This document shows positions 3,129 through 27,423 of a stretch of 64,000 nucleotides of DNA, piece by piece. The translations under genes were made by a program, and so were the position numbers. The first letter of the stretch is position 1. Every line of letters starts with the position of its first letter. Source of the stretch: Escherichia phage MRostami-2023e; sequence record OQ031495. One strand, given 5' to 3'. Below the pieces are notes generated by a model. That model had not been told where the DNA came from. It worked only from the letters and a program-made list of their open reading frames with translations, and made no database searches.

Positions 3129-3134
3129 GGTTAT

Positions 3135-4711: not shown

Positions 4712-4719
4712 AGGTAAAC

Positions 4720-6480: not shown

Positions 6481-6663
6481 ATGAAATTAACTAAAGAAGA
6501 GAAAGCTAAACTGTTCGAACTTATCCATGACCTATTGGACGAGCAAGCAGCCACCAATGCGTACGATGAATATGCTCCTTTAACAGATGAAGAATATCAA
6601 GCATTGATGGAATCATTTGACAGGAAAGAACAAGAACTCATTGACTACGTGAATTCACTATAA
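6481..6663 (+). CDS. Hypothetical acidic protein
   Basis: 60-aa ORF. Confidence 0.45.
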   Translation: MKLTKEEKAKLFELIHDLLDEQAATNAYDEYAPLTDEEYQALMESFDRKEQELIDYVNSL

Positions 6664-6672
6664 GGGACTCTT

Positions 6673-7254
6673 ATGGCTAGTTTAATTTTTACATATGCCG
6701 CTATGAATGCTGGTAAGTCTGCTTCATTACTTACTGCCGCACATAACTATAAAGAACGTGGCATGGGTGTATTAGTTCTTAAACCGGCTATTGATACTCG
6801 CGATTCAAAAGGTGAAATAGTCTCTCGTATTGGTATTCGTCAGGATGCCAATATAATTACAAAAGACATGGATATCTTTGAATTCTATAAATGGGCTGCA
6901 GCACAAAAGGATATTCACTGTGTATTTGTTGACGAAGCTCAGTTCTTAACTACTGAAAAGGTGTATCAACTTAGTCGTATTGTTGACGTATACAATGTGC
7001 CGGTAATGGCATATGGACTACGAACAGATTTTAAAGGTAATCTATTTGAAGGTTCTCAAGCATTAATGGCTATTGCCGATAAGCTTGTTGAACTTAAAGG
7101 TGTCTGTCATTGTGGTAAAAAGGCCACAATGGTAGCTAGAGTCACGGAAGACGGACTTCCAATTACAGATGGCAGTCAAATTGAAATTGGTGATACCGAT
7201 AGATATGTGTCATTATGCCGGAAGCATTGGAATGATTTGACAGGGTTGTTATAA
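6673..7254 (+). CDS. tk: Thymidine kinase
   Basis: MASLIFTYAAMNAGKSASLL...VFVDEAQF...CHCGKKA... near-identical to T4 Tk; P-loop and zinc-ribbon cysteines present. Confidence 0.92.
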   Translation: MASLIFTYAAMNAGKSASLLTAAHNYKERGMGVLVLKPAIDTRDSKGEIVSRIGIRQDANIITKDMDIFEFYKWAAAQKDIHCVFVDEAQFLTTEKVYQLSRIVDVYNVPVMAYGLRTDFKGNLFEGSQALMAIADKLVELKGVCHCGKKATMVARVTEDGLPITDGSQIEIGDTDRYVSLCRKHWNDLTGLL

Positions 7255-7257
7255 ATA
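7250..7257 (+). promoter_or_regulatory. Candidate T4-type late promoter (TATAAATA)
   Basis: Exact TATAAATA octamer about 25 nt upstream of the 7282 start. Confidence 0.4.
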
Positions 7258-7281
7258 CTAATATCTAACCAAGAGGTATAT

Positions 7282-7494
7282 ATGCAGCAATTAAACGAAA
7301 GACAACTTCGTAATCTTACTGTAACCCAATTGGATGAAATCCGAAGAGAATTAGGACATTCTATTTCTCATTTAAACGAGGATATCCGTCAAACTGGTTC
7401 TAAAGCTGATTATACACGCAAGCGCAAGCTGGAAAAATACCTCACAGATGTTAAGGCCGTCCAAAGGCGAAAAATAAATACTGGCCAAAATTAA
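7282..7494 (+). CDS. Hypothetical protein
   Basis: 70-aa ORF with SD GAGG upstream. Confidence 0.5.
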
Positions 7495-7506
7495 CAGGAG
7501 GCCTAT

Positions 7507-7809
7507 ATGGCCTTAAGAGCGATAGCTGTCATGGCGATGCTGGGGTTTTTTGCAGCAACAACTCCTAACGTTGGTACTGCATATGTTGACCCATATTTTG
7601 ATAACTTTATGGAATCAGGGATTAAAAACGTATATACTTTGTTTGAAATTCAAAATGTCGAGAATTCTGAAAAATTCTATAAGTATATGGCAAAGCATTA
7701 CAAAAATAGCCCCTGTGATGATGCATTTGAATGTCATGAACAAGGCATAAAAACTGCCAGACAATTTGCCGAGTTCATGAAAATAAAATTAGAGCCTACA
7801 TCTATCTAA
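7507..7809 (+). CDS. Secreted hypothetical protein
   Basis: Signal-peptide-like N-terminus MALRAIAVMAMLGFFAA; SD AGGAGG upstream. Confidence 0.5.
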   Translation: MALRAIAVMAMLGFFAATTPNVGTAYVDPYFDNFMESGIKNVYTLFEIQNVENSEKFYKYMAKHYKNSPCDDAFECHEQGIKTARQFAEFMKIKLEPTSI

Positions 7810-7815
7810 TTTACT

Positions 7816-7844
7816 AGCCCCTTCCTTATGGTTGGGGCTTTTTG
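7816..7844 (+). terminator. Rho-independent terminator
   Basis: AGCCCC / GGGGCT stem with 12-nt loop followed by TTTTT. Confidence 0.6.
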
Positions 7845-7854
7845 GCATCTATCA

Positions 7855-7905
7855 GTTTACTTCTCCTCAGGTTGTGTTATAGTAAACCTTACTTACTAGA
7901 GGAGA
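7855..7905 (+). promoter_or_regulatory. Early promoter / stem-loop cassette
   Basis: GTTTAC 7855-7860, 17-bp spacer, TATAGT 7878-7883; inverted repeat TCTCCTC / GAGGAGA places the SD in the 3' arm. Confidence 0.55.
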
Positions 7906-7910
7906 ACGTT

Positions 7911-8090
7911 ATGACACGTAAAGAAAAAATTTCTAAGTTAATGTTTTTGATTGAAGAGTACGCTAATGCGGTATCTGATTGGGAAAATGCTCATGGTTGC
8001 GAAGATGGAGACATCGACATTAACAGAGCTATGAAAAAGATGGCTGACGCCCACACCGAATTGCAAATGTATGTTAACGAGATTATGTGA
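7911..8090 (+). CDS. Hypothetical protein
   Basis: 59-aa ORF downstream of the cassette. Confidence 0.45.
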   Translation: MTRKEKISKLMFLIEEYANAVSDWENAHGCEDGDIDINRAMKKMADAHTELQMYVNEIM

Positions 8091-8097
8091 GGATATT

Positions 8098-8190
8098 ATG
8101 CTTTACGATTATACTGGAAAATCTGAAGACGGTGTACTTGAACTTTTACCTGAAAGCGCTGAAGATGATGATATGGTGGTGATGTTTTGT
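8098..8190 (+). CDS. Hypothetical protein, 5' part only (runs into masked run)
   Basis: MLYDYTGKSEDGVLELLPESAEDDDMVVMFC then N-run. Confidence 0.3.
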
Positions 8191-8571
8191 NNNNNNNNNN
8201 NNNNNNNNNNNNNNNNNNNNNNNNNNNNNNNNNNNNNNNNNNNNNNNNNNNNNNNNNNNNNNNNNNNNNNNNNNNNNNNNNNNNNNNNNNNNNNNNNNNN
8301 NNNNNNNNNNNNNNNNNNNNNNNNNNNNNNNNNNNNNNNNNNNNNNNNNNNNNNNNNNNNNNNNNNNNNNNNNNNNNNNNNNNNNNNNNNNNNNNNNNNN
8401 NNNNNNNNNNNNNNNNNNNNNNNNNNNNNNNNNNNNNNNNNNNNNNNNNNNNNNNNNNNNNNNNNNNNNNNNNNNNNNNNNNNNNNNNNNNNNNNNNNNN
8501 NNNNNNNNNNNNNNNNNNNNNNNNNNNNNNCAAGTTGAAGAACTTTATCGACATTTAAAACACAATCGGTA

Positions 8572-8601
8572 GTTTACATCTTGGTAGGATTATGTTATAG
8601 T
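8572..8601 (+). promoter_or_regulatory. Early promoter
   Basis: GTTTAC 8572-8577, about 18-bp spacer, TATAGT 8596-8601. Confidence 0.45.
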
Positions 8602-8736
8602 AGTCCTATCAAAACGAACGGAGACCAAAATGAAACTTTTGCTTATCGCTTATGTTGTAGTACAATATAATTATCCGATGTTTACTTATAACATGGTAAA
8701 CGGCATAGTGAATCTTATTGAAACGAGTATGGTAAA

Positions 8737-8916
8737 ATGACCCGTGAACAAGCTAATAAATTGATGGACCTTATCCGTGACTTACGTGAAGCCGATTCAG
8801 ATTTGAATGATGTAGCTTATCATGCGGTAAATGATAACGGAGATTTTTATGAAAATCAGGTTGACGCTTGCCAGAATGCTTTGGTGAATTTTGTTGAAAC
8901 TTTAATTGGTGAATAA
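8737..8916 (+). CDS. Hypothetical small protein
   Basis: 59-aa ORF MTREQANKLMDLIRDLREADSD...; not in the track (below 60 aa). Confidence 0.35.
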   Translation: MTREQANKLMDLIRDLREADSDLNDVAYHAVNDNGDFYENQVDACQNALVNFVETLIGE

Positions 8917-8917
8917 T

Positions 8918-9448
8918 ATGAAAACTGTAATTGAAACAACCGAGTTGTTTGGCGATTTATGTATCGAAAAACGTGGTTATGCTTACGTTCTGACACAAGA
9001 AGATGATGCTGTTACTATTCTTCCTATGGAACTGGACAAGATTTTGAAACTCAATCCGCCCGGCCATGCATCTGTAATTAACATTGATGAAGACCTTCAA
9101 GTTCGTTTTTATCACGGTCTTTATAGTGGGGTTAATATCGAAACAGAAGATGAATGCCTTTCTATCAATAATTGGAAAACATTCGTCACTAAGGTGAAAG
9201 AATTCATAGAATCTGAAACTGCCAAAAAGGCCAAACTTCAATGGGCTAAATGCCGTAATGCTTTTATTACAAATCAGGACCGCCCTGACTATACAACAGT
9301 CCTAGGCGTTAATCCTTCTTATGAAGACGGTGATGTCGTAGTTATTCGCCAAATTGATGACCTTCGTCAACATATCATTACATTAGACAAAGATGAGGCA
9401 GTTGCTCTTAAAGCTTATCTCGATTCTATTATCCCAACTTTGAAATAA
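8918..9448 (+). CDS. Hypothetical protein
   Basis: 176-aa ORF (MKTVIETTELFGD...); start right after upstream stop. Confidence 0.5.
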   Translation: MKTVIETTELFGDLCIEKRGYAYVLTQEDDAVTILPMELDKILKLNPPGHASVINIDEDLQVRFYHGLYSGVNIETEDECLSINNWKTFVTKVKEFIESETAKKAKLQWAKCRNAFITNQDRPDYTTVLGVNPSYEDGDVVVIRQIDDLRQHIITLDKDEAVALKAYLDSIIPTLK

Positions 9449-9457
9449 GGAATTATT

Positions 9458-9931
9458 ATGATTATCAATGAAAACTCTTGGCACTTTAAACTTTATGCAG
9501 CGTTCAATAGTACATGGAATCGCCCGAAAACATTATGTGCTTATTTTTGGAAAACGTTAATCCCAGTATTGGCTGTTTCAATTATTGGATTTGCGATTTT
9601 AGCAGCAGTCACAATTATTGGCCAGGAAATTTTAACTAGATTCTTTGTTTTTAGCAGTCTATGGACATTAGTTCCGGCCTCAATTGGCGTAGGCATTTTA
9701 ATGGTAGCAGTCATGGCTTTTATTTCTGTAGGGTTGGTAATTGGCCCGTCTTGGTTGTTAGACAAATATAACGACAGAAAATATTATAAAGAAATTGAGT
9801 TCATTGCACAAAACCAAGAACGAATTAAAAATGGACTTGAACCTATTGAACGTAAGAAATCATTAATAGGTGAATACCTTAAAGCTCGTAAAGAAAAAGT
9901 CTGTCCTACTCTTGAATATAAGGCTAAATGA
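9458..9931 (+). CDS. Hypothetical membrane protein
   Basis: Two long hydrophobic segments; SD AAGGAA upstream. Confidence 0.5.
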   Translation: MIINENSWHFKLYAAFNSTWNRPKTLCAYFWKTLIPVLAVSIIGFAILAAVTIIGQEILTRFFVFSSLWTLVPASIGVGILMVAVMAFISVGLVIGPSWLLDKYNDRKYYKEIEFIAQNQERIKNGLEPIERKKSLIGEYLKARKEKVCPTLEYKAK

Positions 9932-10917
9932 TGAAAACAATTATGAAAGGCTACTTTGGTAGTCACCTTTATGGAACGTCCACTCCTGAATCTGACGTCG
10001 ATTTTAAAGAAATTTATGTCCCTCATGCTCGTGATATCTTGACCGGTAACGTTAAAGAACACATGAGCAAGAACACGAATAACACATCTTCTAAGAACAC
10101 AAAAGACGACGTGGACCATGAGTTGTATAGTCTCAAATATTTCTTTAAACTAGCTGCGGATGGTGAAACTGTCGCATTAGATATGCTTCACACTCCACCA
10201 AGCCTAGTAGTTAAATCTGATTTGCCTGATGTATGGAAGTATATTCAAGATAACAGGTCTCGTTTCTATACCACTAACATGAAATCTTATTTAGGGTATG
10301 TCCGTAAGCAAGCTTCTAAATACGGTGTCAAGGGTTCTCGACTGGCTATTCTTCGACAAGCCCTTAAACGTTCTAATGAATGGGGACAATACTTTGATAA
10401 TGGTGCAGTAATTCGTTTATCACATATGAAGAATGTTCTGCCTGTAGGTGAATTTGCTTCGTGGGTTGAAACCGAAAACGAGAAAACAGGTAAGCAAACA
10501 TTCTATAATCTGTTGGACCGTAAATTCCAAGACACGTTAACCAATAAAGAGTTCAATGCCATCCTGGTTAAACTGGAAGAGAACTACGGTGAACGTGCTC
10601 GTAAGGCAGAAGCTAACGAAGGTATTGACTGGAAAGCATTGAGTCATGCGTGTCGTGGTGGACTTCAATTATTGGAAATTTACAAAACCGGCGACCTGGT
10701 TTACCCACTTCAGGATGCTCCATTTATTCTCGATGTTAAGCTTGGTAAACATACGTTTAAAACTGTACAAGAATTCCTAGAAGATATCGTTGACCAAGTT
10801 GAACATGCATCGGAACAAGCCGCTAAGAACGGTATGCAACAAAAAGTAGATATGAGTTTCTGGGATGATTTCCTTGAGCAAGTCTATCTCGAAAATCATA
10901 ATTCTTACTATAAATAA
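9928..10917 (+). CDS. Pol-beta-superfamily nucleotidyltransferase-like protein
   Basis: GSHLYGTSTPESDVDF fits the GS-x9-13-DxD nucleotidyltransferase signature; 329 aa. Confidence 0.5.
   Translation: MMKTIMKGYFGSHLYGTSTPESDVDFKEIYVPHARDILTGNVKEHMSKNTNNTSSKNTKDDVDHELYSLKYFFKLAADGETVALDMLHTPPSLVVKSDLPDVWKYIQDNRSRFYTTNMKSYLGYVRKQASKYGVKGSRLAILRQALKRSNEWGQYFDNGAVIRLSHMKNVLPVGEFASWVETENEKTGKQTFYNLLDRKFQDTLTNKEFNAILVKLEENYGERARKAEANEGIDWKALSHACRGGLQLLEIYKTGDLVYPLQDAPFILDVKLGKHTFKTVQEFLEDIVDQVEHASEQAAKNGMQQKVDMSFWDDFLEQVYLENHNSYYK
10909..10916 (+). promoter_or_regulatory. Candidate late promoter (TATAAATA)
   Basis: Exact TATAAATA overlapping the upstream stop, about 33 nt before the 10949 start. 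Confidence 0.35.
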
Positions 10918-10948
10918 ATAGATAAATAACCATTAACTTGAGGTAAAT

Positions 10949-11227
10949 ATGAAAAAATTAGTAATTGGTTTATTCGCAGTAATGATGGCATTCTCTGTTG
11001 GTGCTACCACGGGTGCAGCCAGCGGTGCAGGAGCTGGTGGTAACCAGTCTTCTGGGCCTTCCAATGGTTCGGTAAATGCATCACATTCTCAAGGTATTGA
11101 GAACATTAAATCAAGCTATATTAATAGCACGGCCGGACAAGCAACTGAAGCATGGTCAAAGGGTCGAGTAGTTACTCACTCCGTATTCTGTGATATGCCT
11201 AATTATGTTGCTAAGTGCGATAAGTAA
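10949..11227 (+). CDS. Secreted Gly/Ser-rich hypothetical protein
   Basis: Signal peptide MKKLVIGLFAVMMAFSVGA; SD GAGG upstream. Confidence 0.5.
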   Translation: MKKLVIGLFAVMMAFSVGATTGAASGAGAGGNQSSGPSNGSVNASHSQGIENIKSSYINSTAGQATEAWSKGRVVTHSVFCDMPNYVAKCDK

Positions 11228-11232
11228 ATGTG

Positions 11233-11251
11233 GGGACCTTCGGGTCCCTTT
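11233..11251 (+). terminator. UUCG-tetraloop hairpin (terminator-like)
   Basis: GGGACC ttcg GGTCCC followed by TTTAGGGGG; weak U-tract. Confidence 0.35.
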
Positions 11252-11279
11252 AGGGGGTTAAAATATTTTTAAAAAGTAG

Positions 11280-11310
11280 TGTACATGCTTTTAGGATATG
11301 TTATTATAGA
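11280..11310 (+). promoter_or_regulatory. Early promoter
   Basis: TGTACA 11280-11285 then TATTATAGA -10 region. Confidence 0.45.
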
Positions 11311-11345
11311 CCTATCGAAACGAAATGAGTAAATTGGAGAATAAA

Positions 11346-12326
11346 ATGTTCAACGTTCAAATCAAAAAAGGTATCTATCGTAATAACGAAATCTCTGGTT
11401 CTTATGTTGCCACAAAGACCTGGTTCCCAGCAAAGCTTAATCCTGAATGTTCCCACTTAGGTGACGGTAAAATTTTCGTTATGATTGATGGTTCTGAACG
11501 TGGAGTATGGGTCTTCAAATCAGACATCGTAATGGAAGGAGTTGAGACATCACCAGTTGCAGTTGTTGAAAGCACTGAAGATATGAAAACTCGTATCAAC
11601 AAACGCTTTAAAGTAATGAACATGATGACGAATGGCATTATCGATGGCAAAATTCGTTCACTCATTATTTCAGGTGCAGCCGGTATTGGTAAGACGTATT
11701 CTCTGGATAAAGCACTTAATAATGCTAATGATAATGGTTTCATCAAATACAAAAGCATTAATGGTAAAATCTCTGGTATTGGCCTTTACGAACAACTTTG
11801 GCTCAACCGTGATGCAGACAGCGTTCTCTTAATCGATGACGTTGACGTATTCTCAGATATGGACATCTTGAATCTTCTTAAAGCAGCATTAGATACTGGA
11901 GATAAACGCAAAGTTTGTTGGAGCACTGCGTCATCTTATCTCGATGATAAGGGTATTGATAAAGAATTTGAGTTTGAAGGTACTATCGTTTTCATTACAA
12001 ACGTTGATATCGATAAAGAGTTAGAACGCGGTTCGAAACTTGCTCCACACCTTCAAGCTTTAGTATCTCGCTCAGTGTATCTCGACCTTGGAGTACACTC
12101 TAATGAAGAGATTATGGTTCGAGTTGAAGATGTAATATTATCTACTGACATGATGCAGAAACGTGGTCTGACTGATGCAGAAACGTATAAAGCATTGTCC
12201 TGGATGAAGGCTAATGTATCTCGTCTTCGCAATGTATCATTACGTACCGCTCTTTATGTAGCAGATTTTATTTCAACTGATAAAGATGGTTGGGAGGAAA
12301 TCTCTGAAGTAACTTTACTGAAATAA
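11346..12326 (+). CDS. P-loop NTPase (AAA-like) with distinct N-terminal domain
   Basis: Walker A ISGAAGIGKT and Walker B VLLIDDVD; SD GGAGA before ATG 11346. Confidence 0.55.
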   Translation: MFNVQIKKGIYRNNEISGSYVATKTWFPAKLNPECSHLGDGKIFVMIDGSERGVWVFKSDIVMEGVETSPVAVVESTEDMKTRINKRFKVMNMMTNGIIDGKIRSLIISGAAGIGKTYSLDKALNNANDNGFIKYKSINGKISGIGLYEQLWLNRDADSVLLIDDVDVFSDMDILNLLKAALDTGDKRKVCWSTASSYLDDKGIDKEFEFEGTIVFITNVDIDKELERGSKLAPHLQALVSRSVYLDLGVHSNEEIMVRVEDVILSTDMMQKRGLTDAETYKALSWMKANVSRLRNVSLRTALYVADFISTDKDGWEEISEVTLLK

Positions 12327-12464
12327 GCTTATAGGAAGTTCTGAGGTAACAAAAGCCATAAAGATGAATAATCATATGGCTTACCTCAAAGAAGGACACC
12401 AGGAACCTACTGAGGGCATAGAAATATTTAAAAATAATGATGTACAAATCAAAGAGGATATGTT

Positions 12465-12752
12465 ATGGATTTTATGCAAAAAATTAAAGCCGCAGTCGAA
12501 CTCTATGCTCATCGTATGGTTAGTTCTACAATGCAATATAGCGAGGAGGTTCGCCAGGACTCTTCCTTGAAAGGAAAAACTAAAGCCTTAATTACCTTAG
12601 ACCGTTTGCAAAAGAATGCCATAGAGATGCTCCAGTACGACAAGGGTGTATATAAGAAAGAACTGGAAGAGAAACTTAAATCTGAAAAATTACAAAAAAT
12701 CCCGAAGTCTGTTTGGTTCAGTGGAAAAAATACCGAAAAAAGTTTCTTTTAG
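12465..12752 (+). CDS. Hypothetical protein
   Basis: 95-aa ORF; overlaps alternative ORF 12364-12570. Confidence 0.35.
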   Translation: MDFMQKIKAAVELYAHRMVSSTMQYSEEVRQDSSLKGKTKALITLDRLQKNAIEMLQYDKGVYKKELEEKLKSEKLQKIPKSVWFSGKNTEKSFF

Positions 12753-12754
12753 TT

Positions 12755-12789
12755 GTTTACAAGGTCTATAGTTATGTTATTATAGACCT
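12755..12789 (+). promoter_or_regulatory. Early promoter / stem-loop cassette
   Basis: GTTTAC 12755-12760, 17-bp spacer, TATTAT 12778-12783; inverted repeat AGGTCTATA / TATAGACCT around the -10. Confidence 0.55.
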
Positions 12790-12810
12790 ATCAACTACTG
12801 GAGGTAAAAC

Positions 12811-13338
12811 ATGAACGCTAAAGATATTTTCAACCTGGTAAATTATAACGACGGTAAATTTAAATCTGAAGCACAAAGCAAGTTCTTTAATGACGTTGCT
12901 TATGGTAACGAGATTACCGTGGACGGAGGTCAGATTTTCAAATCTCGCTGGAATTGGATTGTTATCATCGATTCAGTTGGAATTGTGGAAGTCTACAAAA
13001 ACACTAACAAAAAACGTACATTATTCTGGTCTCGTGAAACTAACGAGCAGTACAAAAAGGATAAAGCATCTCGTTTATCCAAAGTAACCCAGGAAGATAT
13101 CGAGTTTATCAAGAAAGATATCGAGATGTACGAAAATTTAATCGCTGAAGACCAGGCCGTACTCGATAAGTTTGATGAAATTAAAGCTTCTCGTGAAATC
13201 CCTGACTTCATGAAAGAAACAGTAAACGAACGATACGCTCTCACTTCAGAACGTATTGCAAACTATACAAAACAGAAAGCAGAACGTATTAGTACTCTTC
13301 GGAAATTTGAAGAACGTTTAAAGACGGTTCACGCATAA
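12811..13338 (+). CDS. Hypothetical protein
   Basis: 175-aa ORF with SD GGAGG upstream. Confidence 0.5.
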   Translation: MNAKDIFNLVNYNDGKFKSEAQSKFFNDVAYGNEITVDGGQIFKSRWNWIVIIDSVGIVEVYKNTNKKRTLFWSRETNEQYKKDKASRLSKVTQEDIEFIKKDIEMYENLIAEDQAVLDKFDEIKASREIPDFMKETVNERYALTSERIANYTKQKAERISTLRKFEERLKTVHA

Positions 13339-13340
13339 AC

Positions 13341-13365
13341 GCTTTACCCAAGGACGGGTTATAAT
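13341..13365 (+). promoter_or_regulatory. Middle-type (MotA-box) promoter
   Basis: GCTTTA 13341-13346, 13-bp spacer, TATAAT 13360-13365. Confidence 0.5.
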
Positions 13366-13400
13366 GGTTCTGAGTTCCAATTCAATCTGAGGAAATAGTT

Positions 13401-14396
13401 ATGAGCATTACATCTGATGCGGTAAAACATGAAATTAACGGTTTATGTGCTTCACAGATTAAAGTGTGGTTTAAAGACCATAACGATCGCAGAGCACTTA
13501 ATTATGAACAAATTGCTATCCAAGTTCATCAATTACTGGTTAGTAAATTTGATTTTCATATGCCGTCTGAAATCTATACTAATCTGCCGCGAGCACTTAT
13601 TAAAGCGTGTAAAGGTTATGGAAAATCAATGGCTGATGGAATCTTCAGCGCGCTGAATAAACTTAACGTTCTGTCGATGATTAACTCTAACAACATCCTG
13701 CGTAATCTAGGACGTACTGATTTGTTCGGTCGTGAACAGTGTAAAATGCCTTTGAAATGGATTGTTGCTCATCTTAACGAGAACCAAACACGTTTTATGG
13801 CCGTAACAGCACGCTTACAAATGGGCCTAGATCGTCAGATGAACTTTAAAACTCATCCACGTTATTCAGGTTCAACTGACTTTTATAAATGTGAGCTTCA
13901 AAAGGTTGCAGGTAAAACTGTCTTAGTAGTTCGTGTAACGTTTGAAGGACGACGTCAAGGATATTTTGACATAATCGGCTCCGGGCTTAAACATTGCGGA
14001 TTTATCGACGAAGTTGATATCAAGCGAGACGGCACCGGATATCGTATTGGGTATGTTTGTACTCTTAAAGAAGAGATTTCAGGACCAGCACCAGGACTAA
14101 AAGACGTTAGATATAAAGACGAGCTCGTTGAAGAAATAAAAGAAGTTGAATATGATATCAACCAAGAAGATGCTCTTAAAGACCTTATTGATGAACTGAA
14201 CCAAGACGTTATTCCTGTTCAGAAATTTGAATCAAAACATGCTGAGCAAATCAAATACTTTGAAGCTTTGATTAACGAACTTAATGTAACTATTCAACAG
14301 ACTGACGATGAAATCTCACGATTAGCAGGCTTAAATGGTAAAAATAAAACAGAACGAGCTAATCTTATTCAGGTAGTAAAACTTCTTAAGGAATGA
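13401..14396 (+). CDS. Hypothetical protein with C-terminal coiled-coil-like tail
   Basis: 331-aa ORF, SD GAGG upstream. Confidence 0.55.
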   Translation: MSITSDAVKHEINGLCASQIKVWFKDHNDRRALNYEQIAIQVHQLLVSKFDFHMPSEIYTNLPRALIKACKGYGKSMADGIFSALNKLNVLSMINSNNILRNLGRTDLFGREQCKMPLKWIVAHLNENQTRFMAVTARLQMGLDRQMNFKTHPRYSGSTDFYKCELQKVAGKTVLVVRVTFEGRRQGYFDIIGSGLKHCGFIDEVDIKRDGTGYRIGYVCTLKEEISGPAPGLKDVRYKDELVEEIKEVEYDINQEDALKDLIDELNQDVIPVQKFESKHAEQIKYFEALINELNVTIQQTDDEISRLAGLNGKNKTERANLIQVVKLLKE

Positions 14397-14425
14397 TGTA
14401 CAACCAAGGATGGTTGGAGTATAAT
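14397..14425 (+). promoter_or_regulatory. Early promoter with embedded hairpin (repeat copy 1 of 4)
   Basis: TGTACA, hairpin CAACCA-agga-TGGTTG, then GAGTATAAT (-10 at 14420-14425). Confidence 0.55.
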
Positions 14426-14451
14426 AAATTTTTCAACATGAGGAATATAAA

Positions 14452-15387
14452 ATGGCTTTTATTACACGTAAAGAACTTATCAAAGAATTTACCTCGAACG
14501 CATATACTCCAGGACCTAATCCTATCCGTATGCCTGTAAAGACTCCTGAAGAGATTGAGGAAGTCTGTTCATATTATGGGATTACTTCTCGTAAGTTTAC
14601 TCAATTTGAATGCGTTACTAACACACCCGTTAAAGAGTTCATTAAAAATGGTGAGTTCAGCCGTTTATTAGCCAAACAGAAACTTCGTAATTTTTGTATT
14701 GGCGGTGAAGGACAATATTTCGCTAAGCAGTTCCGGAATAACCTTAACAATCTGATGGCCATTGCTTCTCGTATTCGTCCTCAAGCAATTAACATGAAAC
14801 ATTTGAAATATACTTACGATAAGTTGGAAATCATGGTTATCAGTGAGAATGAGTTCACTCTTACGTATAAACCTAAGAATGATAACGTTGCTCGTGTATT
14901 TCACCAAGCGTTGGAAGTTTTAGGTGATAATATCCACCAGATTAAAGCAATTTATTCACGTGAGCTTAATATTATCAACCCCATCAAGAATAAGGGTCAT
15001 ATTGCTATCCAGGCTCGTGTATCTATTGGTAAAAAGGTTCCTGCGCCATGGTGGCACAAAGACTCTGAATACTATCAAAATCTTAAAAAGGAAAATGCAT
15101 TGTTTGAAGCATCGCTTACTGGAACCCCAATTGAACAGGCCGAAGTCCTAAGTGCTTATTCTACTTCTNNNNNNNNNNNNNNNNNNNNNNNNNNNAAACT
15201 AAAAGTTTCTAATGACCTTCTTCCGGCCGAAGATTACCATTACAATCAAATCAAGGCCACTATGGACCAACTGTCTGTTGAACTTGACAAAGCACAAGCT
15301 AAGCTTCGTGATGCTCAAAGTGTTGTAACGAATCTCCAGTTGCAGTATTCTAAACTTTTTAACGCAATGAATGCATTAAAATCATAA
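14452..15387 (+). CDS. Hypothetical protein (contains a 27-nt masked run)
   Basis: 311-aa ORF with SD GAGGA upstream. Confidence 0.5.
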   Translation: MAFITRKELIKEFTSNAYTPGPNPIRMPVKTPEEIEEVCSYYGITSRKFTQFECVTNTPVKEFIKNGEFSRLLAKQKLRNFCIGGEGQYFAKQFRNNLNNLMAIASRIRPQAINMKHLKYTYDKLEIMVISENEFTLTYKPKNDNVARVFHQALEVLGDNIHQIKAIYSRELNIINPIKNKGHIAIQARVSIGKKVPAPWWHKDSEYYQNLKKENALFEASLTGTPIEQAEVLSAYSTSXXXXXXXXXKLKVSNDLLPAEDYHYNQIKATMDQLSVELDKAQAKLRDAQSVVTNLQLQYSKLFNAMNALKS

Positions 15388-15391
15388 AATA

Positions 15392-15421
15392 GTTTACAAC
15401 CAAGGATGGTTGGAGTATAAT
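15392..15421 (+). promoter_or_regulatory. Early promoter with embedded hairpin (repeat copy 2 of 4)
   Basis: GTTTAC 15392-15397, CAACCA-agga-TGGTTG, TATAAT 15416-15421. Confidence 0.55.
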
Positions 15422-15449
15422 GAATCTATCTTAACGAGAGGAAAATATT

Positions 15450-16400
15450 ATGACACGTTCACATTACATTGAATACTTTGCAGGTCTTATCGCTAACGTT
15501 CACGCCCAACGTGCTTCTGGTGCACTAGGATTTGATGTTCCACACCGAGATGTAGTAAGTGGTATTCTTCGCGATTTTGGTACATACATAGGCCAAGAAA
15601 ATCATATCTGTAAAGATACTCAAAATGCGTATTCTCATTCGTTAGGGACGTTGCTTCAATGGTTCAAACGTTCTCGTTTATTATCTTCTACTGTAGCTCG
15701 CGATAACATTAAAAACTTTATGAAACCGAGCTTTATTAAATCTGTGACATCTAAAACTGATTTGGTTGAATTCACTATTGTTAATGATGTTAAAAAGACT
15801 CATTTGGCTGATTGGTTATCTACCATTCCTGAAACTAAATTTGCTGATAAATTTGCTTGTGAATTCAATAACCAAGTGAATATGCTTTTTAAACATTCTC
15901 GTAAATTATTCACAGGCGGCGATGATCGTACAAATAAAGTTCATGTTAAAGATTGGGTTACTGCAGTATTCAAACCAACCGGTAATGGTAACGCATCATT
16001 ATCAATTGATATCCAGGTTCCTTATTACTACTCACGTAATCTCGGTACCATGAAAGCCGAAGAAATTAATAAGCGCAACAAAACCATTCGTTCGCTGTCT
16101 TATAAACTTCGCATGATGTTAAGAATCATGGACGTGGTAGAAATGTATGATGAAACCGAAGATAATGGTTCAATGTTATACAGTTCTCGCATTCAAATTA
16201 AGTTGAAGAACCCTAACGAGTATAAGCCTAAGCCTATTAAAGAACCTAAAGTAGAAAAAGTTGATAACTTAAGAGAAGAACGCGAATATCTCAAATCTCG
16301 TCTGAAAGAAGTCGAAGCCCAGATTGCAGAACAAACTAAATCGTTAAAAGCTCTGAATGCGAAAGCGGATGGTTTACGAAATGCCATTGAGGTGTTATAA
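15450..16400 (+). CDS. Hypothetical protein with C-terminal coiled-coil-like tail
   Basis: 316-aa ORF, SD GAGAGG upstream. Confidence 0.55.
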   Translation: MTRSHYIEYFAGLIANVHAQRASGALGFDVPHRDVVSGILRDFGTYIGQENHICKDTQNAYSHSLGTLLQWFKRSRLLSSTVARDNIKNFMKPSFIKSVTSKTDLVEFTIVNDVKKTHLADWLSTIPETKFADKFACEFNNQVNMLFKHSRKLFTGGDDRTNKVHVKDWVTAVFKPTGNGNASLSIDIQVPYYYSRNLGTMKAEEINKRNKTIRSLSYKLRMMLRIMDVVEMYDETEDNGSMLYSSRIQIKLKNPNEYKPKPIKEPKVEKVDNLREEREYLKSRLKEVEAQIAEQTKSLKALNAKADGLRNAIEVL

Positions 16401-16705
16401 TGAAACTACGTCTTTTAGAGGATATTGATATGAGCACTAATCATGGCTTGGTTAAGTTTATTGACGATAGTTCAAAGATCGAATTTGTTCAGCGAGATAA
16501 AATCCACGGTGAAGAAGAGTTCGTTCCTCCGGCATGGAACGAAATAATGAAAATGGTTGAACGACGTGAAAATGCTGCCAAATCGGCAGCAAAACATCCA
16601 TGTCCGGAATGTGGAACTATCCAAGTCCAACTGGTTAACTGGACCAGTGATAACTTGAAATTGAAATGCCGTAAATGCTTCCACAAATTTGAGAGAACAT
16701 TATAA
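16400..16705 (+). CDS. Zinc-ribbon hypothetical protein
   Basis: CPECG...CRKC cysteine pairs; start overlaps upstream stop. Confidence 0.5.
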   Translation: MKLRLLEDIDMSTNHGLVKFIDDSSKIEFVQRDKIHGEEEFVPPAWNEIMKMVERRENAAKSAAKHPCPECGTIQVQLVNWTSDNLKLKCRKCFHKFERTL

Positions 16706-17118
16706 TGAGATATAGCCTTCGTTGTTTTATCGCAGCTTTAGTTTTTGCTATTATTCCATTCATTTGGAACAGCCAGAATACTTACATGGAAACTAAAGTA
16801 ATTCCTGTGGAGGTAGTGGAATTAATTTCAGGTCAATCTACAGGAAAATATTCTAAATTAGAATTTATTGCAGTTTATAAAGATGAGCAAGGACGAGTTT
16901 TTGACAGGCGTGTATCTCCATCATTTTATACGCTTCTGAATAAAGGTGATACGATAGCTATAGAAATTCGTGAGATGGATATCAAACAAACTACTAAAGA
17001 TAACTTGATTTGGTTCTTTGGTACAGTGTTGTTGGTTTCTATCTGTATCACAGGTTTTATTACATGTATTGTATTTGGCATTGCATATTTAATCGATGAA
17101 AGGAAAAATAATGTTTAA
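16705..17118 (+). CDS. Hypothetical membrane protein
   Basis: Hydrophobic N- and C-terminal segments. Confidence 0.5.
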   Translation: MRYSLRCFIAALVFAIIPFIWNSQNTYMETKVIPVEVVELISGQSTGKYSKLEFIAVYKDEQGRVFDRRVSPSFYTLLNKGDTIAIEIREMDIKQTTKDNLIWFFGTVLLVSICITGFITCIVFGIAYLIDERKNNV

Positions 17119-17374
17119 AGTGTACGGGTATGACTCTACTATTCATAAATGCATTTATTGTGATAATGCGAAACGATTGCTGGCTGTTAAGAAACAGCCG
17201 TTCGAATTCATTAATGTTATGCCAGAAAAAGGTGTTTTTGATGATGAGAAAATTGCTGAGCTTCTGGTTAAGCTTGGACGTGAATCACAAGTCGGATTGA
17301 CTATGCCTCAAGTGTTTGCTCCTGATGGAACTTCGATCGGTGGCTTTGACCAACTACGAGAATATTTTAAATGA
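17111..17374 (+). CDS. nrdC: Thioredoxin/glutaredoxin NrdC
   Basis: MFKVYGYDSTIHKCIYCDNAKRLL...LTMPQVFAPDG...FDQLREYFK closely matches T4 NrdC; CIYC active site; SD AGGAAA. Confidence 0.9.
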   Translation: MFKVYGYDSTIHKCIYCDNAKRLLAVKKQPFEFINVMPEKGVFDDEKIAELLVKLGRESQVGLTMPQVFAPDGTSIGGFDQLREYFK

Positions 17375-17727
17375 CATATTCATTAAATCTTAAAGATTTC
17401 CAAGATGTATACGAAGTTTGTGCCAATGAACTTGGTCCTGATGCTCCAACTATTATTGAAGTTTTAAATGTGCTCCCTTCATCATTAGCTTACGAAGCCA
17501 AATCATGGGGTTGGAACGACACTGTCGTTCGTGATGACCTTTACGTCCTGATGAACGATATGATGGTTAAAAAGGCAGAACCGGTTGCACCAATGGTTAC
17601 CATTACCGTTGAAGAATATAATCGCCTGCAAGCCATTGAAGAGCTTCTGTGGAATATTGAATGTGACCTGCCGTCAGGGCTAGAATCCTGGATTGATTAT
17701 GAAGAGCTCAATAAACTCCGGGGTTAA
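17371..17727 (+). CDS. Hypothetical protein
   Basis: 118-aa acidic ORF, start overlaps nrdC stop. Confidence 0.5.
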   Translation: MTYSLNLKDFQDVYEVCANELGPDAPTIIEVLNVLPSSLAYEAKSWGWNDTVVRDDLYVLMNDMMVKKAEPVAPMVTITVEEYNRLQAIEELLWNIECDLPSGLESWIDYEELNKLRG

Positions 17728-17776
17728 ACCGTGGTATTCTGCTCGTTGGGAGACTGTCGAGCCAGACGTTGAAACA

Positions 17777-17806
17777 GTTTACAACGACGAAGAAACGTGT
17801 TATGAT
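17777..17806 (+). promoter_or_regulatory. Early promoter
   Basis: GTTTAC 17777-17782, 18-bp spacer, TATGAT 17801-17806. Confidence 0.45.
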
Positions 17807-17855
17807 GAACCTTCAATAAATGAATTAATTGATATGGAAATGGGAAGAGATTATT

Positions 17856-18026
17856 ATGCAAGTTAAATTATTGTACCGTTTATTAAAAAATGGCAAACAT
17901 GATTGGTATTTGCTTATTAAAACCGATCCGAATTTTTTCTCTGGACAACCATTTACAGTTCGTCCTACTAAACGTCAGCTTCGCAAAGCTAAACGTTCTC
18001 ATCGTAACTTTTATAGAGAATATTGA
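17856..18026 (+). CDS. Small basic hypothetical protein
   Basis: RPTKRQLRKAKRSHR tail, shared with ORF 46429-46641. Confidence 0.4.
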   Translation: MQVKLLYRLLKNGKHDWYLLIKTDPNFFSGQPFTVRPTKRQLRKAKRSHRNFYREY

Positions 18027-18027
18027 T

Positions 18028-18441
18028 ATGAATATTTCTGAAACTCGCGGTAAATGGTTCAAGATTGTTAAAGAAGATGAAGAACTACAAGTCAAGTTTC
18101 CTGAATTAAAGAAAGATACGATCATCAAGGTAATTGGTACTACTACCGAAGATGGTTATGGCGACCATGGCATTATCGAAGTGATGTTGAACACAGGTGA
18201 GAAACTTTGCATCTATGACCGTGATACTTCTCTTTGGTGCTTCTGGGAATCCCATTCAATAGATGAACTCGAAGAAATTGACCAAGTAGTTTGTGATGGT
18301 GGACTTGGCGAATTCGAAGGTGAACGTATTTCTTATGCTTTAGCTAAATTAGCCGGACAAGAAAATAACGACGGCTATGAAGGTAACCTGATGCAAGCAG
18401 CCGCAGAATACATTGAATATTTAGAAAGACGTTTAAGTTAA
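18028..18441 (+). CDS. Hypothetical acidic protein
   Basis: 137-aa ORF MNISETRGKWFKIVKED... Confidence 0.5.
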   Translation: MNISETRGKWFKIVKEDEELQVKFPELKKDTIIKVIGTTTEDGYGDHGIIEVMLNTGEKLCIYDRDTSLWCFWESHSIDELEEIDQVVCDGGLGEFEGERISYALAKLAGQENNDGYEGNLMQAAAEYIEYLERRLS

Positions 18442-18640
18442 NNNNNNNNNNNNNNNNNNNNNNNNNNNNNNNNNNNNNNNNNNNNNNNNNNNNNNNNNNN
18501 NNNNNNNNNNNNNNNNNNNNNNNNNNNNNNNNNNNNNNNNNNNNNNNNNNNNNNNNNNNNNNNNNNNNNNNNNNNNNNNNNNNNNNNNNNNNNNNNNNNN
18601 NNNNNNNNNNNNNNNNNNNNNNNNNNTTAAGTTAATAAAT

Positions 18641-18665
18641 ACCCTTATCTATTTAAGGTAAGGGT
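18641..18665 (+). promoter_or_regulatory. Stem-loop over the gene 49 ribosome-binding region
   Basis: ACCCTTA / TAAGGGT inverted repeat ending 5 nt before the 49 start codon. Confidence 0.45.
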
Positions 18666-18670
18666 TTATC

Positions 18671-19144
18671 ATGTTATTATCAGGCGCAAAATATAAAGAA
18701 GAAAAACAAAAATTTTATGATGCACAGAACGGTAAGTGTCCTATTTGCCACCGTGAATTAGACCCTGATGTTCAAGGTAACCATCTTGACCACGACCATG
18801 AATTAAACGGGCCAAAAGCCGGTAGAGTTCGTGGATTACTCTGTAATCTGTGCAACGCAGCAGAAGGTCAAATGAAGCATAAGTTCAACCGTTCTGGTCT
18901 TAAAGGCCGTGATGTCGACTACCTAGAATGGCTTGAAGCTCTTCTCGCTTATTTGAAACAAGATTATTCTGATAATAATATCCATCCTAATTTTGTTCCA
19001 GACAAAACTAAAGAGTTCTCAAGACTAGGTAAAGAGGAAATGATGACCGAGATGCTTCAAAGAGGATTTGAATATAATGAATCAGATACTAAAACACAAT
19101 TAATAGCTTCATTCAAAAAGCAGCTTAGAAAGAGTTTAAAATGA
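18671..19144 (+). CDS. 49: Endonuclease VII (Holliday-junction resolvase)
   Basis: MLLSGAKYKEEKQKFYDAQNGKCPICHREL...HLDHDHELNGPKAGRVRGLLCNLCNAAEGQ... near-identical to T4 gp49. Confidence 0.92.
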   Translation: MLLSGAKYKEEKQKFYDAQNGKCPICHRELDPDVQGNHLDHDHELNGPKAGRVRGLLCNLCNAAEGQMKHKFNRSGLKGRDVDYLEWLEALLAYLKQDYSDNNIHPNFVPDKTKEFSRLGKEEMMTEMLQRGFEYNESDTKTQLIASFKKQLRKSLK

Positions 19145-20958
19145 AAATTGAAAAAGAAATTGAAGGATTAATTCATAAAACTAATAAAGACCTTTTAAAC
19201 GAGAATGCTAATAAAGATTCTCGTGTTTTTCCAACTCAACGGGACCTTATGGCTGGTATTGTGTCTAAGCACATTGCCAAAAATATGGTCCCGTCTTTTA
19301 TTATGAATGCGCATGAAAGCGGAATCATTCACATGCATGATATTGATTATTCTCCTGCTCTTCCATTTACTAATTGCTGTTTAGTCGATTTAAAGGGGAT
19401 GCTTGAGAATGGATTTAAATTAGGCAATGCTCAAATTGAAACGCCTAAATCTATTGGCGTTGCTACTGCAATTATGGCACAAATTACCGCACAAGTTGCT
19501 TCACACCAATATGGCGGAACTACATTTGCGAATGTCGATAAAGTTCTTTCTCCTTATGTTAAACGCACATACGCTAAACATATTGAGGACGCAGAAAAAT
19601 GGCAAATCGCTGATGCGTTGAATTATGCCCAATCTAAAACAGAAAAAGACGTATACGATGCATTCCAAGCTTATGAATATGAAGTAAATACTCTCTTTAG
19701 TTCAAACGGACAGACTCCTTTTGTAACAATTACATTTGGTACAGGAACCGACTGGACTGAACGAATGATTCAGAAAGCAATTCTTAAAAACCGCATTAAA
19801 GGCCTTGGTCGTGATGGAATAACTCCTATTTTCCCTAAGCTTGTTATGTTCGTTGAAGAAGGTGTTAATCTTTATAAAGACGATCCGAACTATGATATTA
19901 AGCAGCTTGCTTTAGAATGTGCAAGCAAAAGAATGTATCCTGACATCATTTCGGCTAAGAACAATAAAGCTATCACCGGCTCATCTATTCCTGTTTCTCC
20001 AATGGGTTGCCGTAGTTTCTTGAGCGTATGGAAAGATTCAACTGGCAATGAAATTCTTGATGGACGCAATAATCTTGGCGTTGTAACACTGAATCTTCCT
20101 CGTATTGCGTTAGATTCTTATATTGGAACACAATTCAATGAACAGAAATTTGCCGAATTGTTCAATGAACGAATGGACCTGTGTTTTGAAGCTTTGATGT
20201 GTAGAATTAGTTCCTTAAAAGGAGTTAAAGCGACTGTTGCTCCTATTCTTTACCAAGAAGGTGCATTTGGGGTTCGTCTTAAACCTGACGACGATATAAT
20301 TGAGTTATTTAAAAACGGTAGAAGTTCAGTGTCTTTAGGATACATCGGTATTCATGAATTGAATATTCTTGTCGGCCGTGATATTGGACAAGAAATTTTA
20401 ACTAAAATGAATGCTCATCTTAAACAGTGGACTGAAAGAACCGGTTTTGCTTTTAGCTTGTATTCTACTCCTGCTGAAAACCTGTGCTATCGCTTCTGTA
20501 AACTTGATACTGAAAAATATGGAAGTGTAAAAGATGTTACTGATAAAGGCTGGTACACTAACAGTTTCCATGTTTCAGTAGAAGAAAATATTACTCCGTT
20601 TGAAAAGATTTATCGCGAAGCCCCATATCATTTCATTTCGNNNNNNNNNNNNNNNNNNNNNNNNNNNNNNNNNNNNNNNNNNNNNNNNNNNNNNNNNNNN
20701 NNNNNNNNNNNNNNNNNNNNNNNNNNNNNNNNNNNNNNNNNNNNNNNNNNNNNNNNNNNNNNNNNNNNNNNNNNNNNNNNNNNNNNNNNNNNNNNNNNNN
20801 NNNNNNNNNNNNNATTTGTTTGTTCTATGTGTGGAGAAACTGATCCTAAAAAGATGAACACAATAAGAAGAACGTGTGGTTATCTTGGAAACCCGAACGA
20901 ACGCGGATTTAATCTAGGCAAAAATAAAGAAATCATGCATAGGGTTAAACACCAATGA
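19141..20958 (+). CDS. nrdD: Anaerobic ribonucleoside-triphosphate reductase (class III; 173 nt masked inside)
   Basis: 605 aa; NCCLVDLKGML and C-terminal RRTCGYLG glycyl-radical motif with zinc-ribbon cysteines. Confidence 0.9.
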   Translation: MKIEKEIEGLIHKTNKDLLNENANKDSRVFPTQRDLMAGIVSKHIAKNMVPSFIMNAHESGIIHMHDIDYSPALPFTNCCLVDLKGMLENGFKLGNAQIETPKSIGVATAIMAQITAQVASHQYGGTTFANVDKVLSPYVKRTYAKHIEDAEKWQIADALNYAQSKTEKDVYDAFQAYEYEVNTLFSSNGQTPFVTITFGTGTDWTERMIQKAILKNRIKGLGRDGITPIFPKLVMFVEEGVNLYKDDPNYDIKQLALECASKRMYPDIISAKNNKAITGSSIPVSPMGCRSFLSVWKDSTGNEILDGRNNLGVVTLNLPRIALDSYIGTQFNEQKFAELFNERMDLCFEALMCRISSLKGVKATVAPILYQEGAFGVRLKPDDDIIELFKNGRSSVSLGYIGIHELNILVGRDIGQEILTKMNAHLKQWTERTGFAFSLYSTPAENLCYRFCKLDTEKYGSVKDVTDKGWYTNSFHVSVEENITPFEKIYREAPYHFISXXXXXXXXXXXXXXXXXXXXXXXXXXXXXXXXXXXXXXXXXXXXXXXXXXXXXXXXXXFVCSMCGETDPKKMNTIRRTCGYLGNPNERGFNLGKNKEIMHRVKHQ

Positions 20959-21425
20959 ATTATGATAGAATTTATCCTTGTGATTTTGTGAATGGCCCTG
21001 GTTGCAGGGTCGTTCTTTTCGTTACAGGTTGTTTGCATAAATGTGAAGGGTGTTATAATAAATCAACATGGAATGCTAGAAATGGTATTCCATTCACTGG
21101 TGAAACACTAAAACAATTAATTGAAATTTTGAATAATGATTAAATAGAAGGATTAACTATAACTGGAGGAGACCCTCTCTATCCTGATAACCGAGATGTT
21201 ATTCATTGCATTGTTCAAACTATTAAAAATCTTTATCCCAATAAAAGCATTTGGTTGTGGACAGGATATAAGTTTGAAGATATTAAACAACTAGAAATGC
21301 TTAAATATGTTGATGTTATTATTGATGGGAAGTATGAGAAAAATCTTCCGACCAAAAAGATATGGCGAGGATCAGATAATCAGCGACTTTGGTCAAATAC
21401 CGATGGGGTGTGGAAACATGATTAA
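20955..21425 (+). pseudogene. nrdG: Anaerobic RNR activase (radical SAM) interrupted by in-frame TAA at 21141-21143
   Basis: MNYDRIYPCDFVNGPGCRVVLFVTGCLHKCEGCYN... then TAA; same frame continues IEGLTITGGDPLYP...WLWTGYKFEDIKQLEMLKYVDVIIDGKYEKNLP...WKHD, matching the rest of T4 NrdG. Confidence 0.6.
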
Positions 21426-21753: not shown

Positions 21754-22071
21754 ATGATTAGTTTTGAGCGGTATGTGGTAGAGAGTTGGAAAGGTTTTGA
21801 TATGTTCGGTAATGACTATTATTTCTATGAATGTAGTCTAAATCCTAGTTTTTGGGCTGGACGTGAACGAGATCTCGAAGAAATTAATGCTCGTGCCGAA
21901 TTGTTAGGTGAATTGCCTACGGTTTATTTTACCTTTGATGAGTCTGGATTTGTTATCCAGGTTTATTTTCCTGAAGAAAACTCTGGTGAGGATTCTGTTA
22001 ATCCTCCTTATTGGGCTTACCAAGGAATTATTTCTCGTGGAACAAAACTCGAACTTAAAGAACAAGATTGA
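21754..22071 (+). CDS. Hypothetical protein
   Basis: 105-aa ORF. Confidence 0.5.
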   Translation: MISFERYVVESWKGFDMFGNDYYFYECSLNPSFWAGRERDLEEINARAELLGELPTVYFTFDESGFVIQVYFPEENSGEDSVNPPYWAYQGIISRGTKLELKEQD

Positions 22072-26403: not shown

Positions 26404-27423
26404 ATGAAAATTTTGCACTTAGGCGATTGGCATTTAGGTGTTAAAGCCGATGATGAGTGGGTTCAATCTATTCAGCTGGATGGAATTAAACAAGCAATAG
26501 AATATTCTAAGAAAAACGGAATTACTGTATGGATTCAATACGGCGATATTTTTGATGTGCGAAAAGCAATCACACATAAAACTATGGAGTTCGCTCGTGA
26601 AATAGTTCAAATGCTTGATGATGCTGGTATTACCCTACATACTGTTGTAGGAAACCATGATATGCACTTTAAAAATACTTTAACTCCAAATGCTTCTACT
26701 GAGCTTTTGGCTAAATATCCTAATGTTAAAGTATATGATAAGCCAACTACTGTAGATTTTGACGGATGTCTGATTGATATCGTTCCATGGATGTGTGAAG
26801 AAAATACAGGTGAAATCTTAGAGCACATCAAGACTTCTTCCGCAGCGTATTGTGTTGGTCACTGGGAACTGAATGGCTTTTATTTCTATAAAGGAATGAA
26901 GTCTCATGGGCTTGAACCTGATTTCTTAAAGACTTATAAACAAGTCTGGTCTGGCCACTTCCACACAATCTCTGAAGCTGCTAACGTCAAATATATTGGG
27001 ACACCATGGACCCTTACTGCAGGTGATGAGAACGATCCGCGCGGATTCTGGGTATTTGACACTGATGTTGAACGTATGGAATTTATTCCTAATGAAACAA
27101 CATGGCATCGACGAATCACTTATCCGTTTAAAGGCAAAATTAATTATTCTGATTATACTAATCTAGCCGTACGTGTTATAGTATCAGAAATTGATTCAGA
27201 GTTGACTAAGTTTGAATCTGAACTTGAAAAAGTAGTTCACTCTCTTCGTATGGTTTCTAAAGTTGATAACAGTGTTGAATCTGATGACGACCAGGAAATC
27301 GAGATTAAATCACTTCAAGATATCATTAAAGAATATATTGACGCGATTCCAGATATCTCAGACGAAGACAGAGAAGCGCTGGTCAAATATTCCAACGAAC
27401 TTTATATTGAGGCAACACAATGA
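26404..27423 (+). CDS. 47: Recombination nuclease subunit gp47 (Mre11-like)
   Basis: MKILHLGDWHLG...GNHDMH...GHWELNG...GHFH phosphoesterase motifs; matches T4 gp47. Confidence 0.92.
   Translation: MKILHLGDWHLGVKADDEWVQSIQLDGIKQAIEYSKKNGITVWIQYGDIFDVRKAITHKTMEFAREIVQMLDDAGITLHTVVGNHDMHFKNTLTPNASTELLAKYPNVKVYDKPTTVDFDGCLIDIVPWMCEENTGEILEHIKTSSAAYCVGHWELNGFYFYKGMKSHGLEPDFLKTYKQVWSGHFHTISEAANVKYIGTPWTLTAGDENDPRGFWVFDTDVERMEFIPNETTWHRRITYPFKGKINYSDYTNLAVRVIVSEIDSELTKFESELEKVVHSLRMVSKVDNSVESDDDQEIEIKSLQDIIKEYIDAIPDISDEDREALVKYSNELYIEATQ

Follow-up and report, generated by a model that had tools for sequence, protein, structure and literature searches.

The window analysed here, a stretch of 64,000 nucleotides from Escherichia phage MRostami-2023e (OQ031495), comes from a T4-like coliphage of the genus Mosigvirus. 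A megablast search returned 816 records of T-even-like coliphages, and the nearest full genomes are those of Mosigvirus, with identities of 97.7% for moskry and 99.6% for Escherichia phage vB_EQ1 (PQ516281.1). The window carries the genes for the catalytic subunit (nrdD) and the activase (nrdG) of a class III ribonucleotide reductase, adjacent to each other and in the same arrangement as in relatives. The stop codon of nrdD overlaps the nrdG start codon, the ATG at 20955, in the tetranucleotide ATGA. The activase gene is interrupted by an in-frame stop codon, and the features of the locus are as follows:

18671–19144: gene for T4 endonuclease VII (gp49), upstream of nrdD
19141–20958, + strand: nrdD, catalytic subunit of the class III (anaerobic) ribonucleotide reductase, 605 codons, frame open
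20955–21425, + strand: nrdG, activase, entire reading frame of 156 codons plus stop, broken at codon 63
20955–21143, + strand: translatable ORF for a 62-residue N-terminal fragment with the radical-SAM cluster motif Cys26-X3-Cys30-X2-Cys33
21111–21143, + strand: four substitutions within 33 nt that are unique to this sequence
21141–21143, + strand: in-frame ochre codon TAA (codon 63) in the context TAA-A; TAT (Tyr63) in relatives
21144–21425, + strand: untranslated C-terminal remnant of 93 codons, containing the GGDPL motif
3' of nrdG: the 55.x genes, then gp55

Read from the ATG at 20955, the frame encodes MNYDRIYPCDFVNGPGCRVVLFVTGCLHKCEGCYNKSTWNARNGIPFTGETLKQLIEILNND and then reaches the TAA at 21141–21143, beyond which it continues as IEGLTITGGDPLYP...GVWKHD up to the terminal TAA at 21423–21425. 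With codon 63 included, the 156 codons equal the length of NrdG in relatives. The conceptual protein carrying Tyr63 scores 199.1 bits against the NCBIfam model TIGR02491, for which the curated NrdG cut-off is 126.1 bits; the 62-residue N-terminal fragment alone (80.0 bits) and the 93-residue C-terminal remnant alone (108.2 bits) both fall under this cut-off. An earlier note on this DNA, made from its letters and open reading frames, had named the gene nrdG, read the radical-SAM motif CLHKCEGC in its frame, seen the TAA at 21141–21143 in that same frame, and recognised conserved NrdG sequence past it as far as WKHD. The read-through translation confirms the identity by its TIGR02491 score, the motif is in frame within the first 62 codons, and the TAA is followed by 93 more codons of NrdG sequence. 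The gene shares with T4 NrdG (gene 55.9; TIGR02491, Pfam PF13353/PF04055) its position straight after nrdD, the ATGA overlap, the length of 156 codons, the CX3CX2C and GGDPL motifs and all invariant residues of the family, and it has 95–98.5% nucleotide identity to the nrdG genes of Mosigvirus and Tequatrovirus. It differs from T4 NrdG in that codon 63 is TAA rather than TAT, leaving only the first 62 residues that can be made, and in the changes E53K and C/R58I.

In an alignment of 28 phage and bacterial NrdG sequences, the invariant cysteines C26, C30 and C33 are encoded 5' of the stop, whereas the other invariant positions named here are encoded 3' of it: G66, G71, G72, D73, P74, N79, K97, W100, T103, G104, Y105, D120, D124, G125, T133, R138, G139, S140, N142 and Q143. 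The TAA thus splits the CX3CX2C iron-sulfur motif, on the 62-residue side, from the GGDPL SAM-binding motif and the remaining fold, and in this allele GGDPL and the C-terminal conserved core are not on one polypeptide with the cluster motif. The only relative of NrdG found in the PDB by sequence is pyruvate formate-lyase activase (3c8f), which aligns over residues 8–75, a segment that spans the cluster motif and the GG(D/E) motif. As the 62-residue product would have little of the fold and no SAM-binding motif, it is predicted to be inactive. Translation of the remnant by restart also appears improbable. There is no canonical in-frame start after the stop before a TTG at codon 101, and no Shine-Dalgarno sequence precedes this TTG. 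At codon 69 (21159) there is a near-cognate ATA with AAGGA 6 nt before it, and this AAGGA-ATA combination is also found in relatives with an intact gene, so it is not an adaptation. With no usable restart after the TAA, the nrdG allele would be null, provided that the base call is right.

Comparison with close relatives, which the earlier note had put forward as a check, finds the stop in none of them. Codon 63 is TAT in 34 of 34 aligned related loci (31 full-length and 3 partial), among them those of ECO26.1, ST2 and T2, so that the interruption corresponds to a single T>A change at 21143; all 31 related full-length copies of nrdG are intact. When the 86 nt around the site were searched with blastn against 50,697 phage records, 655 matches were returned, none of them with the TAA. 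The best of these is identical at 82 of 86 positions, meaning that no record has either the TAA or any of the three neighbouring changes described below. The viral, genome and metagenome contig collections contained neither the exact TAA pattern nor a TAA/TAG pattern, and a TAY control pattern matched nine viral contigs. The 62-residue product has no entry in the gene-position index, and a megablast search of complete E. coli genomes and plasmids gave no match to the allele. Contigs of the same lineage were also sought by way of gp55.8, gp49 and the 183-residue form of PinA, which yielded 21 further relatives, all with TAT; the sole carrier of the 183-residue PinA, MZ234025.1, is about 96% identical and belongs to another lineage. 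The 99.6% identical vB_EQ1 is uninformative on codon 63, as its linear record does not include the site.

The stop codon is one of four private substitutions. These are G>A at 21111 (E53K), TG or CG>AT at 21126–21127 (C/R58I) and T>A at 21143 (Y63stop), where all 34 related loci have G at 21111, T or C followed by G at 21126–21127, and T at 21143. All four changes are non-synonymous or nonsense and extend a run of A or T; three of them are transversions. A further candidate, L136I (21360), was dropped from the list of private changes as MZ234025.1 also has A there. Templated mutation by a hairpin or quasi-palindrome was considered and rejected, since the derived sequence folds no better than the ancestral one, and no donor copy for the patch is present in the window within 3 mismatches.

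Relative to ECO26.1, which has the nearest allele, the differences in nrdG number 1.5 synonymous and 5.5 non-synonymous, a pN/pS of 0.93 that is based on small counts and would be given equally by random errors. In gp49, both halves of nrdD and the ORF at 21754–22071, pN/pS is 0.02–0.07, and the contrast with nrdG is the pattern predicted by relaxed constraint. If nrdG is a pseudogene, the ratio of about 0.9 against 0.02–0.07 in its neighbours may mean, within the limits of the small counts, that it is not a fresh one. A second disabling lesion was not found in nrdG, which has the one stop, no frameshift and no indel. The 3' part of nrdD has about 24 synonymous and 3.5 non-synonymous differences from relatives (pN/pS 0.04). 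Between this part and nrdG, the pS against ECO26.1 falls sharply, from 0.215 to 0.016, which points to a recombination junction at the nrdD/nrdG boundary.

The earlier note had described nrdD as intact. Its frame is open, the RRTCGYLGNP glycyl-radical motif is kept, and it aligns at equal length with NrdD of moskry and ECO26.1; its C-terminus is near-identical to that of T4 NrdD (PDB 1h78), and a pN/pS of 0.03–0.06 indicates purifying selection. The description therefore stands for the readable part of the gene, 173 nt (20641–20813) being masked as N. The private NrdD changes S491Y and A500S, beside this N run, were considered as a sign of sequence errors and found not to be diagnostic, because these positions vary in distant NrdD proteins and the pN/pS of the segment is natural. 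Homing endonucleases of the seg and mob types are known to target nrdD as well as nrdG, and in T4 mobC sits between the two genes (PMC2988022). Among the relatives, a GIY-YIG ORF splits nrdD in several, and an HNH/NUMOD3 ORF lies between nrdD and nrdG in one.

The quality of the sequence bears directly on how the stop is to be read. All eight runs of N in the window fall within 1680–20813, and the last ends 330 nt upstream of the internal TAA; if the window is a scaffold of contigs, as it looks to be, nrdG would lie 140–610 nt from a contig end. Relative to vB_EQ1 the N runs are mostly not length-preserving, the exception being the run in nrdD; at the run 18442–18626, the 9-mer TTAAGTTAA is duplicated on the flanks and single-copy in vB_EQ1, as in an unmerged contig join. 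The vB_EQ1 record itself, labelled a complete genome, has its two ends at 20246 and 21367 of the window; its contig thus failed over the 1.1 kb that hold the stop. Over most of about 60 kb the window and vB_EQ1 do not differ at all (100% identity), the exceptions being a few recombination-like patches. These are 19582–20007 (nrdD), 26427–26742 (5' end of gene 47) and 50668–50704, together with indels at 11026 and 60256. At the other N runs, the flanking sequence agrees fully with vB_EQ1 as far as the N, with one mismatch at 15204. The window and moskry have in common 108 ORFs that are 80 codons or longer; an internal stop occurs in nrdG alone, and a frameshift in none of them. The base-level quality of the window is otherwise high.

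Besides a fresh pseudogene or an error of sequencing, the earlier note had offered read-through of the stop as a third option. In E. coli, UAA is the stop codon that leaks least. TAA is the commonest genuine stop in the window, where it terminates 53 of the 89 ORFs of 80 or more codons on the + strand, which led us to reject a genome-wide reassignment of TAA; the context TAA-A ends 21 ordinary ORFs of this length. Folded with DNA energy parameters, the 71 nt that surround the stop give −0.7 kcal/mol (z = +0.79 against shuffled sequences), and no stable structure is seen there. ARAGORN detects no tRNA in the window, and the tRNA cluster of the sister genome contains no suppressor tRNA, only Arg-UCU and Met-CAU. 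With a stop that is not conserved, no downstream structure and no suppressor tRNA, programmed read-through is unsupported, and this option was not borne out. The likeness to known read-through and bypass in phages (the Q-beta A1 protein and T4 gene 60) is superficial, lying in an in-frame stop beyond which conserved coding sequence goes on without a change of frame. The stop of the window differs from those systems in being absent from relatives and without downstream structure, in being UAA and not the leaky UGA or UAG, and in having no gap and no pair of take-off and landing codons.

We regard a genuine nonsense allele of nrdG as the likeliest explanation and give it about an even chance, judging from the sequence comparisons above. 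In this account, a T>A transversion in this Mosigvirus lineage would have turned Tyr63 (TAT) of nrdG into the ochre codon TAA. Ribosomes coupled from nrdD would start at 20955, stop at 21143 and release the 62-residue peptide, which would have the three cluster cysteines and be without GGDPL and the later radical-SAM strands, leaving the phage with no activase of its own. The glycyl radical of the phage NrdD would then be formed only by the NrdG of the host, if at all. Such a loss would be tolerated because the class III reductase is auxiliary, the phage also has an aerobic class I ribonucleotide reductase, and phages are isolated and propagated in air. We infer here a correct base call, a truncated product without activity and a neutral loss. 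The near-complete identity of the remaining window to the independent vB_EQ1 record argues for the nonsense allele. Against it, four unique substitutions in 33 nt on an otherwise near-ECO26.1 allele look unlike independent point mutations, a second disabling lesion is lacking, the changes lie in a part of the sequence that has the appearance of a draft, and the allele seems to occur in no other assembly, read set or protein record. A more specific version, in which the allele is real and circulating in a Mosigvirus lineage without its own activase, nrdD stays constrained, the host NrdG activates its product, as it must in the many phages with nrdD alone, and the patch is a single repair or conversion scar in a homing-endonuclease hotspot, we consider improbable.

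It is a serious possibility, to which we give somewhat less than an even chance, that the stop was produced by sequencing or assembly and that the phage itself has TAT. The TAA and its three neighbours would then come from sequence with poor support, for example the tip of a contig, a stretch with low coverage or without polishing, or a read that is chimeric or in the minority, and the region would be one that resists assembly in this lineage. The N runs that mostly do not keep length, one of them with the duplicated 9-mer, make the window resemble a scaffold of contigs, and the same 1.1 kb is unassembled in vB_EQ1. The make-up of the patch, with its clustering, its lack of synonymous changes, its transversions, its lengthened A/T runs and its absence from all 655 records, is what errors may produce, and the near-neutral pN/pS of nrdG suits random errors as well as relaxed constraint. 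However, the N-run flanks agree with vB_EQ1 apart from 15204, the 108 ORFs show no indel or frameshift and 107 of them no internal stop, the 3' part of nrdD has a natural substitution pattern even though it lies in the same unassembled stretch, and four random errors would be unlikely to create a stop by chance. The two options of the earlier note, fresh pseudogene and sequencing error, are thus both viable, with the freshness of the pseudogene in doubt given a pN/pS of about 0.9 on small counts.

Two further explanations are far less probable. A scar of one multi-nucleotide event, with the stop as its by-product, is a sub-case of a real mutation that we hold to be very unlikely; it could have arisen by error-prone repair or gene conversion after cleavage by a homing endonuclease, or by recombination with an unsampled divergent allele. 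The clustering of the four changes, the recombination breakpoint at the nrdD/nrdG junction, the standing of both genes as seg and mob targets and the endonuclease ORFs in or near nrdD of some relatives are consistent with it, but the window contains neither a donor copy nor a quasi-palindrome able to template the changes, the endonuclease-bearing relative L032 has ordinary sequence at the site, and a divergent natural donor should bring mainly synonymous changes, of which the patch has none. It is also very doubtful that the stop is real and a functional NrdG is made all the same, whether by read-through or suppression of UAA or as two fragments with a restart at the ATA of codon 69, with only a slight chance for either route. 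An ochre-suppressing host tRNA-Tyr, for example, would give the wild-type protein. The downstream frame is open and conserved, AAGGA stands 6 nt ahead of the ATA at 21159, and purifying selection on nrdD would make sense if the system still worked. An open frame 3' of the stop is expected in any case for a recent mutation, however, and the AAGGA-ATA combination is not specific to this allele. The absence of the stop from all 34 related loci and 655 records argues that no recoding site has evolved, and the standing of TAA and TAA-A as the main terminator, the unstructured surroundings and the lack of a suppressing tRNA in the window or the sister cluster all weigh on the same side. Neither a nonsense allele nor an artefact, the two leading explanations, would be a new kind of feature.

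Outside annotation the consequences are small. If the allele is real, it would add one more T4-like phage that is losing an auxiliary gene of anaerobic metabolism, and would provide a natural nrdG-null, nrdD-positive phage with which to ask if the host activase serves the phage class III reductase, and of what importance the module is in the anoxic gut. An artefact would be a warning on this assembly and on the sister GenBank record that is without the same 1.1 kb. In either case we suggest annotating the gene as nrdG interrupted by an internal stop until this is confirmed in the reads, rather than as a case of recoding. We found no paper on vB_EQ1 in the literature, and nothing on a host activase activating T4 NrdD.

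Loss of the activase would fit what has been described for other phages. Among the T4 relatives, nrdG is one of the auxiliary-metabolism quasi-core (non-core) genes (PMC2993671), and a survey of 128 RNR-bearing phage genomes lists many with nrdD and without nrdG, and none with an interrupted nrdG (PMC3653736). A real allele would make the phage of the window functionally like these nrdD-only phages and presumably dependent on the host NrdG. It differs from them in that its activase gene is still there and almost intact, suggesting that the loss, if there was a loss at all, would be very recent.

Synonymous divergence from ECO26.1, the phage with the closest nrdG allele, is 0.215 over the 3′ part of nrdD (20248-20958) and drops to 0.016 over nrdG (20955-21425), and a recombination junction is therefore placed at the nrdD/nrdG boundary. 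The record of the sister phage vB_EQ1 (PQ516281.1) has its ends at window positions 20246 and 21367 (loci L004 and L006), such that approximately 1.1 kb, comprising the 3′-terminal third of nrdD together with the initial 412 nt of nrdG, is missing from it, despite its GenBank label “complete genome”. This absence is either an assembly break or, if the ends of the record are contiguous, a real deletion.

Three NrdD changes are unique to the window sequence (S491Y, A500S and V/I563M, at 20612, 20638 and 20829, respectively), of which S491Y and A500S were not found in 895 phage records. None of the three is more than 30 nt from the masked stretch of nrdD, and the corresponding positions are variable among distant NrdD proteins. 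In four relatives (loci L019, L021, L023 and L032) nrdD is carried as two ORFs, of 181 and approximately 443 amino acids, interrupted by a GIY-YIG (SegE-like) ORF of 254-256 amino acids, which is presumably an intron or homing-endonuclease insertion; an insertion of this type is absent from nrdD of the window. In some relatives, a free-standing HNH endonuclease gene occupies the nrdD/nrdG boundary.

A divergent patch is also found in gene 47:

26404-27423, SbcD-like ORF, gene 47, with the divergent patch 26427-26742 in its 5′ end

Identity of the patch to vB_EQ1 and to the Mosigvirus relative moskry is only about 71%, but an IMG/VR contig (L010) matches it at 94.7%, while the surrounding backbone is otherwise 100% identical. 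The patch has the appearance of a recombination mosaic with sharp borders within an essential recombination-nuclease gene.

The interval that separates the pinA-like gene from gene 49 contains a 185-nt run of Ns (18442-18626), with the direct repeat TTAAGTTAA on both sides (18433-18441 and 18627-18635). In both vB_EQ1 and MZ234025.1, a PinA-183 carrier, the junction has a single copy of this motif. The run marks either two contigs that were joined with their overlap left unmerged, or a masked insertion of approximately 185 nt accompanied by a 9-bp target-site duplication.

Relative to vB_EQ1, the window also has an insertion at 6057-6472, largely composed of Ns (6057-6318 and 6463-6470), the unmasked 144 nt of which have their match in a hypothetical gene carried by Tequatrovirus phages (e.g. 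teqhad, 95.8%); this is a further mosaic cassette of the hyperplastic region. In the same comparison the window lacks 3 bp at 11026 and 21 bp at 60256, and at the latter site it agrees with moskry rather than vB_EQ1.
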